In this document: positions 9,683-10,528 of the stretch, in pieces
How positions within the stretch are numbered: the stretch's first letter is position 1
Layout of the letters: every line of letters begins with the position of its first letter
Assembly (NCBI RefSeq): GCF_003334255.1
Contig: NZ_QOWU01000047.1
Length of the DNA: 43,500 nucleotides
DNA from: Escherichia coli
GTDB lineage: Bacteria > Pseudomonadota > Gammaproteobacteria > Enterobacterales > Enterobacteriaceae
Strand: one strand, 5' to 3'
Translations under genes and position numbers: made by a program
The notes under the pieces: generated by a model
Told to the model about the DNA's origin: nothing
Databases searched by the model: none
The model's input: the letters and a program-made list of their open reading frames with translations, nothing else

Positions 9683-10447
9683 CATGACTCCTTGCTCATC
9701 GCATGAAGACTCCGAGAGTGAACCCCGTTAGAAAGGGTCACACGCATGCCCCAATAGAAATTTGTTTGAACACTTTCATCATACCATGTGAATGCACACA
9801 AAAACGGCGTAAAGAAAGGTTGCAAACATGTTAATAAAAACTCAAATTGATCCCACGTATATATTACGCCGCAAAATCCTTACAATAAACAGGTTTTTGT
9901 TGAAGCAAATTTGCATTTTTCGACGGTGATCAATTTATAGCTAAATTACCGCCTTTCAGCCAATTTGATCGAGAACAATTTATCTCTTTTTGATGCCCAT
10001 TTCCAAGACTTATACATTGATAAATATCAATTCCTACAAATTATGTTAATCATGTTTCAATAAGGTAACTTTAGTGACATTTATGTTTAAAATGTGTGAG
10101 TTATAAGGCTGAAATTAGTTTCGGTTGGCAATTAAAGATAAAAAGAGACGAAGCAAAAACAGCACGGTTGACCTTAATTCTTTTTTTGGTCACTGGCTAA
10201 TACGACGCAGAGTTTCAGGATTACTAATAAAGGCATAAATCCACCCCGCCAATATTAACATTTAGTTAACCTATAATTATATTATAATTAACTCACCCAG
10301 GGTTATTATTTTGTTAAAAATAAAGCCACATATACGTGGCTTGAGAGTGAAGATAAACGCAAAATTACCTGATGCGCTACGCTTGCCAGTGTCTACATCA
10401 TCTCTGCAATATATTGAATTTGCCTGCTTTTGTAGACCGAATAAAGC
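9683..10447. promoter_or_regulatory. Long AT-rich upstream control region and 5' leader of cydAB (multiple promoters; FNR/ArcA-regulated in E. coli)
   Basis: ~765 bp non-coding AT-rich sequence upstream of cydA; contains TTGATCGAGAACAA (FNR-like, one mismatch to TTGAT-N4-ATCAA) near 9965-9978 and a 17-bp AT palindrome at 10274-10290. Confidence 0.5.
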
Positions 10448-10471
10448 GTTCATGCCGTATCCGGCATGAAC
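10448..10471 (-). terminator. REP-like hairpin downstream of mngB (10-bp stem, 4-nt loop); putative mngAB terminator
   Basis: Perfect inverted repeat gttcatgccg / cggcatgaac ~60 nt after the mngB stop, followed on the minus strand by GCTTTATTCGG. Confidence 0.4.
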
Positions 10472-10528
10472 AAAGCGCCCTTTGTCAACAATCTGGCCGC
10501 GCATATGTGGCTTCGGTTTGATTGCTAT

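Follow-up and report, generated by a model that had tools for sequence, protein, structure and literature searches.

The spacer between mngB and cydA in a K-12-like Escherichia coli is very probably the cydAB control region joined to the 3' end of the mngAB operon

Why does cydA of Escherichia coli lie behind so long a stretch of DNA in which no gene is annotated? In the window (the whole stretch of DNA that was analysed, 43.5 kb in length), mngB ends at 10529 and the annotated ATG of cydA occupies 9682-9680 on the minus strand. The non-coding gap of about 850 bp to which a first-pass annotation had drawn attention thus measures 846 bp (9683-10528), and no other gap between annotated genes in the window is as large. 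It is also AT-rich, as had been stated, with a G+C content of 0.368 (36.8%) vs. 0.512 (51.2%) for the window and a minimum of 0.27 at 9983-10082. The window is K-12-like E. coli DNA: the 1718 bp around the spacer differ from MG1655 by one mismatch and the whole 43.5 kb by about 28, and the spacer has the same flanking genes, mngB and cydA, as in NC_000913.3. The gap is the long-studied promoter and regulator region of cydAB, already known, which sets cytochrome bd-I to oxygen supply; since the DNA is the same as that previously studied, the finding is correct but ordinary. In a Genomic SELEX study the same spacer is given as "847 bp", with several RpoD-holoenzyme peaks and an H-NS flag (PMC3946193). 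Overall, in positions 9683-10528 (minus strand, 37% G+C) we almost certainly see the transcriptional control region of cydAB from a K-12-like E. coli together with the mngAB 3' end, and no encoded protein.

The locus had been proposed to be a multi-promoter, multi-regulator control region, with a comparison against mapped transcription starts and regulator binding as the suggested check. We ran this comparison by converting published MG1655 coordinates (x, in U00096.2 numbering) to window positions as 9682 + (770681 - x). The published coordinates for FNR, ArcA, the transcription start site (TSS) and sigma-70 fall on motifs present here, and the TSS, two FNR sites and three ArcA sites could all be located in the spacer. 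The FNR-like site noted earlier at 9965-9978 reads TTGATCGAGAACAA, has one mismatch to TTGAT-N4-ATCAA and coincides with a published FNR motif site (770385, TTGTTCTCGATCAA); we refer to it as FNR-2. A perfect TTGAT-N4-ATCAA box, TTGATAAATATCAA, which had been missed, lies at 10017-10030 (FNR-1), its centre 341.5 bp upstream of the ATG, and corresponds to motif site 770333 (TTGATATTTATCAA). Both motif sites, 770333 and 770385, belong to the FNR ChIP-seq peak reported for cydA (PMC3688515), whose summit at 770404 converts to window position 9959 (PMC3688515). Two perfect FNR boxes and four with one mismatch occur in the 43.5-kb window, and one of each is found in the spacer, FNR-2 being 52 bp downstream of FNR-1. 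The half-sites of FNR-1 are conserved across genera and among E. coli alleles. A third FNR-like half-palindrome, TTGATCACCGTCGA in cydA orientation, is located at 9920-9933; it has two mismatches and is conserved, and we found no published assignment for it.

The spacing of the two boxes also bears on the position of promoter P1. An FNR site at -53.5 is tabulated for cydA (Table 1 in PMC3688515), and we infer that this entry is FNR-1 relative to P1. Given the centre of FNR-1 at 10023.5, a distance of 53.5 and the 52 bp between boxes, the P1 start would be near 9970 (about -288), with FNR-2 over that start. The P1 promoter so placed (9970-10006, minus strand) would consist of a -35 hexamer TTGGAA (10006-10001), a 16-bp spacer and a -10 hexamer GATAAA (9984-9979), and both hexamers are conserved. 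Nearer to cydA, a proximal promoter (9854-9889, minus strand) comprises a -35 element TTTATT (9889-9884), a 17-bp spacer and a -10 element TAATAT (9866-9861). A genome-wide TSS map gives one start, 770509, together with its upstream sequence (PMC3415461). This start is window position 9854 (a G, at -172), corresponding to a leader of 172 nt, and its 50-nt upstream sequence is present at 9854-9904. One published sigma-70 ChIP peak, higher anaerobically, has the same coordinate (770509, window 9854), and a second, higher aerobically, converts to about 10324. The block holding the -172 promoter (AAAAACCTRTTTATTGTAAGG...GTAATAT) can still be recognised in genera as distant as Dickeya, Yersinia, Rahnella and Budvicia. 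The -172 start would represent P5, with which the proximal promoter is consistent. Promoters P1-P5, along with footprints of FNR, ArcA and H-NS, were reportedly mapped by Cotter 1997, Govantes 2000a, b, and Lynch and Lin 1996. Secondary sources describe five promoters, with P1-P4 under the control of O2, ArcA and FNR and P5 mainly aerobic. A simple promoter scan of the spacer returned three promoter-like sites vs. 3.8 expected from shuffles, and thus no excess.

ArcA ChIP-seq resolves three sites at this locus, cydA1 to cydA3 (PMC3798270), and each can be placed in the spacer. ArcA site I ("cydA1") occupies 10252-10293 on the minus strand, scores 14.5 bits with a position weight matrix (PWM), and includes the published three-repeat site 770081-770111 (10252-10282); its peak at 770055 (window position about 10308) has the highest enrichment of the three ArcA sites (PMC3798270). 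Site I contains the 17-bp perfect AT palindrome that had been noted at 10274-10290, TAATTATATTATAATTA, which indeed has 8-bp arms and one central base. Taken alone the palindrome is marginal: among 1000 dinucleotide-shuffled versions of the spacer, 53 had arms of at least 8 bp. Next to the published site lies another conserved GTTAA repeat, at 10288-10293, and the conservation in the alignment of a distal GGTGTTAATT...AAATGTAA array suggests that site I might be read as four repeats in 11-bp phase (10293-10255). The single base that differs from MG1655 lies in repeat 3 of this site (AGGTTAAC in the window vs. AAGTTAAC), with G in the window and A in MG1655. ArcA site II ("cydA2") is a cluster at 10052-10103 (minus strand; ChIP-seq site 770260-770311) with PWM matches, and its TTAACA/ACAT columns are conserved in 30 Enterobacteriaceae sequences. 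ArcA site III ("cydA3") falls within the leader at 9807-9837 (minus strand; ChIP-seq site 770526-770556).

The weight matrix was built from 20 published non-cyd sites and used with a cut-off of 9 bits; of its 16 matches in the 43.5-kb window, the 846-bp spacer holds 6. Among eight Enterobacteriaceae sequences scanned, all have a match at -155 to -135 and six have an ArcA-like box near -590 in the same orientation; of the other two, Citrobacter has its box at about -620 and E. cloacae has no match above threshold there. PWM boxes at about -590, -400 and -145 are thus found in most Enterobacteriaceae tested.

These elements are compatible with a mechanism drawn from the literature. H-NS would silence the AT-rich DNA upstream of cydAB, and the composition of the spacer is consistent with H-NS binding. 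In the ChIP-seq study, ArcA is reported to disrupt H-NS repression at cydAB (PMC3798270). With falling oxygen, phosphorylated ArcA would bind its sites and lift the silencing, increasing cydAB transcription, and under full anaerobiosis FNR at its two boxes, at and upstream of P1, would exert partial repression. The combination of ArcA relief of silencing with anaerobic partial repression by FNR would make net cydAB expression maximal under microaerobic conditions, and the downstream (proximal) promoter would supply basal and aerobic transcription. The regions of focA-pflB, sdhC/gltA and cyoA likewise have several close ArcA ChIP-seq sites per AT-rich spacer and several starts, and ArcA is thought to act there as an anti-repressor and not as a recruiter of RNA polymerase (PMC3798270). 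However, they control different genes, and at cydAB the pairing of FNR as partial repressor with ArcA as activator yields the microaerobic maximum. Compared with the E. coli K-12 cydAB region itself, both FNR sites, the three ArcA sites, the -172 start and the sigma-70 peaks are all present, and nothing differs from MG1655 except the one base in ArcA site I. The sites picked out in the first-pass annotation are therefore the experimentally bound ones; this adds no new biology, but a reading of the sequence alone had located real regulatory sites. Joint regulation by FNR, ArcA and H-NS makes the cydAB control region a textbook example, and cytochrome bd-I serves respiration at low oxygen and nitric oxide resistance in enteric bacteria.

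The far end of the spacer belongs to the neighbouring operon. The REP-like hairpin noted at 10448-10471 has 10-bp perfect arms and a 4-nt loop, as described, and is part of a true REP at 10432-10465 (minus strand), with two mismatches to the REP consensus, an imperfect palindrome of about 34 nt that ends in CTAC, and 0 chance matches expected. A second, degenerate REP, ACCTGATGCGCTACGCTTGCCAGTGTCTACA, was recognised at about 10367-10398 (plus strand) by direct reading against the Z-type REP at 22705-22733; it carries an indel and was thus missed by the consensus search at up to three mismatches. The two REPs, in opposite orientation, would form a BIME-like pair. The Rfam models naRNA4 and ES036, which detect BIME-derived RNAs elsewhere in the window, stay below threshold in the spacer. 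Beyond the REPs we identified an intrinsic-terminator-like hairpin that had gone unnoted, AAGCCACGTATATGTGGCTT followed by a T-run (10313-10342, minus strand), with an 8-bp stem, a 4-nt loop and TTTATTTTT, 187 nt past the mngB stop. This hairpin is probably the mngAB terminator, and the REP, the second REP and the terminator together are the 3' end of the mngAB operon. A consensus REP match and a stem with T-run are what REP/BIME elements and intrinsic terminators show at operon 3' ends, although, unlike the consensus, both REPs here are degenerate (two mismatches in one, an indel in the other). The palindrome and the hairpin had both been listed among the features of the region; both exist but neither is a regulatory device of its own, the palindrome belonging to ArcA site I and the REP to the mngAB 3' end. 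In the direction of cydA, the order is thus two REPs and the mngAB terminator (-783 to -631), ArcA I (-611 to -570), ArcA II (-421 to -370), FNR-1 (centre -341.5), P1 with FNR-2 (about -288), the proximal promoter with its TSS at -172, ArcA III (-155 to -125), and a structured leader ending in a Shine-Dalgarno (SD) sequence.

That leader raises the possibility of a further layer of control. A stem-loop, GUGACCCU/GGGGUUCAC, lies at 9718-9741 (minus strand), 36-59 nt before the start codon, and in E. coli its stem pairs 9741-9734 with 9726-9718; the structure is conserved and the sequence variable. In 48 of 49 taxa the segment between the motifs GGGCAU and GGAGUCUUC, both of them invariant, folds as a single hairpin (mean z -1.96), and these 48 hairpins have unrelated sequences and lengths of about 25 to 75 nt. 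It is followed by a nearly invariant block, CUCGGAGUCUUCAUGCGAUGAGCAAGGAGUCAUG (9683-9716, minus strand), which includes the SD AAGGAG at 9693-9688. Over the 33 nt that precede the ATG, most Enterobacterales families sampled share 82-91% identity; identity from -33 to +59 is also 82-91% in Yersiniaceae, Morganellaceae and Hafniaceae, and in Budviciaceae conservation begins at -29. A search of 9550-10650 against Rfam 15, run with the gathering threshold and with a permissive one, gave no family, the best sub-threshold match being ES036 (21.9 bits vs. 37.6). The covarying stem-loop at 9718-9741, with no Rfam family, is probably undescribed.

It might be, then, that the stem-loop and the CUUC...GGAG block control translation initiation of cydABX or the stability of its mRNA, for instance through occlusion of the SD or protection of a processed 5' end. 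We regard such a post-transcriptional element as a real but somewhat less than even prospect, and it would supplement the transcriptional control region, not replace it. Besides the recurrence of the hairpin and the identity of the last 33 nt, it draws on covariation: in an unfitted MAFFT alignment of 27 Enterobacteriaceae, all nine stem pairs change on both sides and none of 500 shuffles reaches the observed covariation score, but sliding the structure by +1 equals it. In a model-fitted alignment of 69 sequences, which is biased towards the proposed structure, the covariation is 0.371 vs. 0.133 for shuffles and 0.05-0.12 for slid controls; the stronger result is thus that of the fitted alignment. 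RNAalifold proposes a helix of CUUC/UUCCU with the SD; its columns are invariant and lend it no covariation support. On plain MAFFT alignments that program returned only such invariant SD-pairing helices, the variable stem being missed through misalignment. Against the element, the folding energy of the E. coli leader as a single sequence does not stand out from that of shuffles (z -0.14 and +0.33). CsrA is reported to increase cydABX ribosome footprints 3.5-fold in Salmonella (PMC6347204), which favours post-transcriptional control, whereas an E. coli CsrA table records unchanged translation efficiency for cydA. CsrA binding at the two GGA motifs of the leader is thus not supported, cydA having four "No" flags in that table, which we read as no direct binding on an assumed meaning of the columns. 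A text search of the literature for sRNA regulation of cydA gave nothing useful.

Is the length of the spacer itself an accident of K-12 history? We compared 80 cydA loci from Enterobacterales and Vibrio. Across Enterobacterales the spacer upstream of cydA measures about 650-900 bp, whatever the upstream gene. The usual neighbour is sucD, and mngB is also found upstream of cydA in Kluyvera, Enterobacter cloacae, Superficieibacter and others. In 30 Enterobacteriaceae the conserved blocks are ArcA II, FNR-1, the P1 -10 with FNR-2, a block of about 85 nt holding the -172 promoter, ArcA III and the last 76 nt of the leader, and the FNR and ArcA sites keep conserved positions in the family. Because lengths of 650-900 bp recur in genera with other upstream genes, these comparisons indicate that the long non-coding region, with its length and site order, is ancestral and not a K-12 accident.

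The opposing view would be that only the proximal 375 bp or so are control DNA, the distal 470 bp (10056-10528) being filler left by insertion of mngRAB and of accidental length. BLAST homology to other E. coli alleles and to other genera does end at -373 to -424, and the outermost 215 bp or so are taken up by the REPs and the terminator. Yet the strongest ArcA ChIP-seq peak (about 10308) and a sigma-70 peak (about 10324) are both distal, in genera that lack mngB, cydA is still preceded by 650-900 bp, and most of 17 aligned sequences, including genera with sucD, not mngB, upstream, have an ArcA-type GGTGTTAATT...AAATGTAA array at about -590 to -620. We therefore consider the filler explanation improbable. 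A sharp island junction at about -375, hinted at by BLAST, was likewise discarded, as ArcA II and an ArcA I-type array are conserved further upstream.

Apart from its regulatory content, the control region had been said to hold no convincing reading frame, and this agrees with what we found. With a minimum of 60 aa, a single ORF lies entirely within the spacer, the one already noted at 10277-10504 (minus strand, 75 aa). As described, it has no SD, the 20 nt before its ATG (GCAATCAAACCGAAGCCACAT) containing neither GGAG nor AGGA, and it sits over the REP hairpin, overlying in fact both REPs, the terminator and ArcA site I. Some RefSeq genomes carry it by automatic annotation as a "hypothetical protein" (WP_001324497.1), but BLAST detects no counterpart of its DNA in the other genera compared or in other E. 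coli alleles, and an NCBIfam search with the ORF found no family. A second candidate, a leader uORF of 21 codons with its ATG at 9746 (minus strand), ends in ATGA, its stop overlapping the cydA ATG, and its start GGGGCATG is kept in most of 27 aligned Enterobacteriaceae leaders. However, its length varies from 5 to 35 codons, frames and stops differ between genera, in two sequences the examined stretch contains no stop, and the ATG is absent in Yersiniaceae and Morganellaceae. Neither candidate is in the curated MG1655 annotation, which has no gene in the spacer and includes small proteins from ribosome profiling elsewhere in the window (e.g., ybgU and ybgV); a weak further negative is that no spacer coordinate was found in the supplement of a ribosome-profiling smORF study. 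We thus regard the 75-aa ORF as an artefact (no SD, no family, no curated entry) and reject the uORF as a conserved coding sequence (neither frame nor length is conserved), so that a small protein gene hidden in the spacer is highly implausible.

If the locus offers anything of possible value beyond what is established, it is in the comparative results alone: the phylogenetic footprint, the leader hairpin and the divergence among alleles. The region is present in all 5426 complete E. coli genomes, but in only 3172 of these does the K-12 form cover at least 80% of the query. An O157/O145-type allele occurs in about 1120 genomes, and a third type in about 1120 more (e.g., PA45B), with a TPR gene upstream and a spacer of 1.3 kb. 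Between about -70 and the ATG the alleles do not differ; over the stretch -375 to -70 the two main forms share 72% identity, and upstream of -375 the K-12 form is not alignable with the others. The FNR half-sites, the -172 promoter block and ArcA III are retained in every allele, and FNR-1, the P1 -10/FNR-2, the proximal promoter and ArcA II and III survive between alleles only 72% identical around them. This presence of at least three deeply diverged alleles of the control region within E. coli is probably undescribed.

We tentatively put forward, as a possibility about which we are doubtful, that an order-wide cis-acting leader RNA (GGGCAU, stem-loop, CUUC...GGAG...AAGGAG) exists and, separately, that E. 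coli maintains at least three diverged, recombinant alleles. If so, the leader element could govern how cydABX mRNA is translated or how stable it is, irrespective of which of the five promoters had fired, and the oxygen tuning of cytochrome bd-I could differ among K-12, O157 and PA45B-like lineages. The leader hairpin and the allelic divergence are modest leads. As regards the alleles, that of O145 resembles Citrobacter (about 87%) more than K-12 (83%).

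The leader of cydA, which lies on the minus strand, contains a stem-loop at 9718-9741 (-) whose nine pairs all show covariation (9/9). It is flanked by invariant motifs, GGGCAU on the 9745-9756 side and GGAGUCUUC...AAGGAG on the 9683-9716 side, and it occurs across the Enterobacterales with variable length. No Rfam family matches this stem-loop.

Upstream of the leader, the promoter block of the published -172 start (window 9854) occupies 9861-9900 (-), AAAAACCTRTTTATTGTAAGG, and can be traced to Dickeya, Yersinia and Budvicia. Given that its conservation extends well past the -35 and -10 hexamers, this sequence suggests a candidate protein-binding site overlapping the -35 element. 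Approximately 72 bp upstream of the same start, at 9920-9933, lies a third FNR-like half-palindrome, which reads TTGATCACCGTCGA in the cydA orientation. Its sequence is retained among the Enterobacteriaceae, while Yersinia has it in the form TTGACCTGTATCCA. This half-palindrome is absent from the retrieved FNR motif sites listed for cydA. Besides the perfect FNR box of the spacer at 10017-10030, the window has a single perfect FNR consensus, TTGATTTCGATCAA at 17531-17544, which falls within the sucC coding sequence.

Within E. coli, the cyd control region (window 9752-10130) exists as at least three recombinant alleles, with counts of about 3180, 1120 and 1120 among 5426 genomes; the comparison drew on the loci of O145 (L002), HH97 (L003) and PA45B (L086). 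Counting upstream from the cydA ATG, the alleles do not differ over the last 70 bp and share 72% identity between -375 and -70. What lies upstream also varies: mngB in one case, and in others a gene for a TPR protein or a methylaspartate mutase cluster. Against the 5426 complete genomes, the best of the matches listed for 9600-10620 reaches 99.9% identity, not 100%. The MG1655 cydA region differs by one base at window 10271, in repeat 3 of the distal ArcA site I (AGGTTAAC in the window, AAGTTAAC in MG1655). In strain LR-31 (H1, NZ_AP027520.1) an IS1A insertion splits the match to the spacer (9600-10620) into two pieces; the insertion could alter cydAB regulation in that strain.

At the mngB end of the spacer, directly after the mngB stop codon, the terminator hairpin region (10310-10342) recurs in degenerate form at 10481-10513, the two segments making a 33-nt direct repeat with 73% identity. 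The 75-aa ORF overlying the REPs (10277-10504 (-)) is annotated in some RefSeq genomes as the hypothetical protein WP_001324497.1 (for instance at 1178-1405 of locus L004), probably an artefact. Outside the spacer, Rfam matches at gathering score comprise the CpoB/ybgF thermometer, three naRNA4 (BIME) copies, ES036 and the tRNA/RtT array, at 1513-1651 (-), 18215-18377 (-), 22749-22819 (+), 40201-40243 (-) and 1-586 (-).
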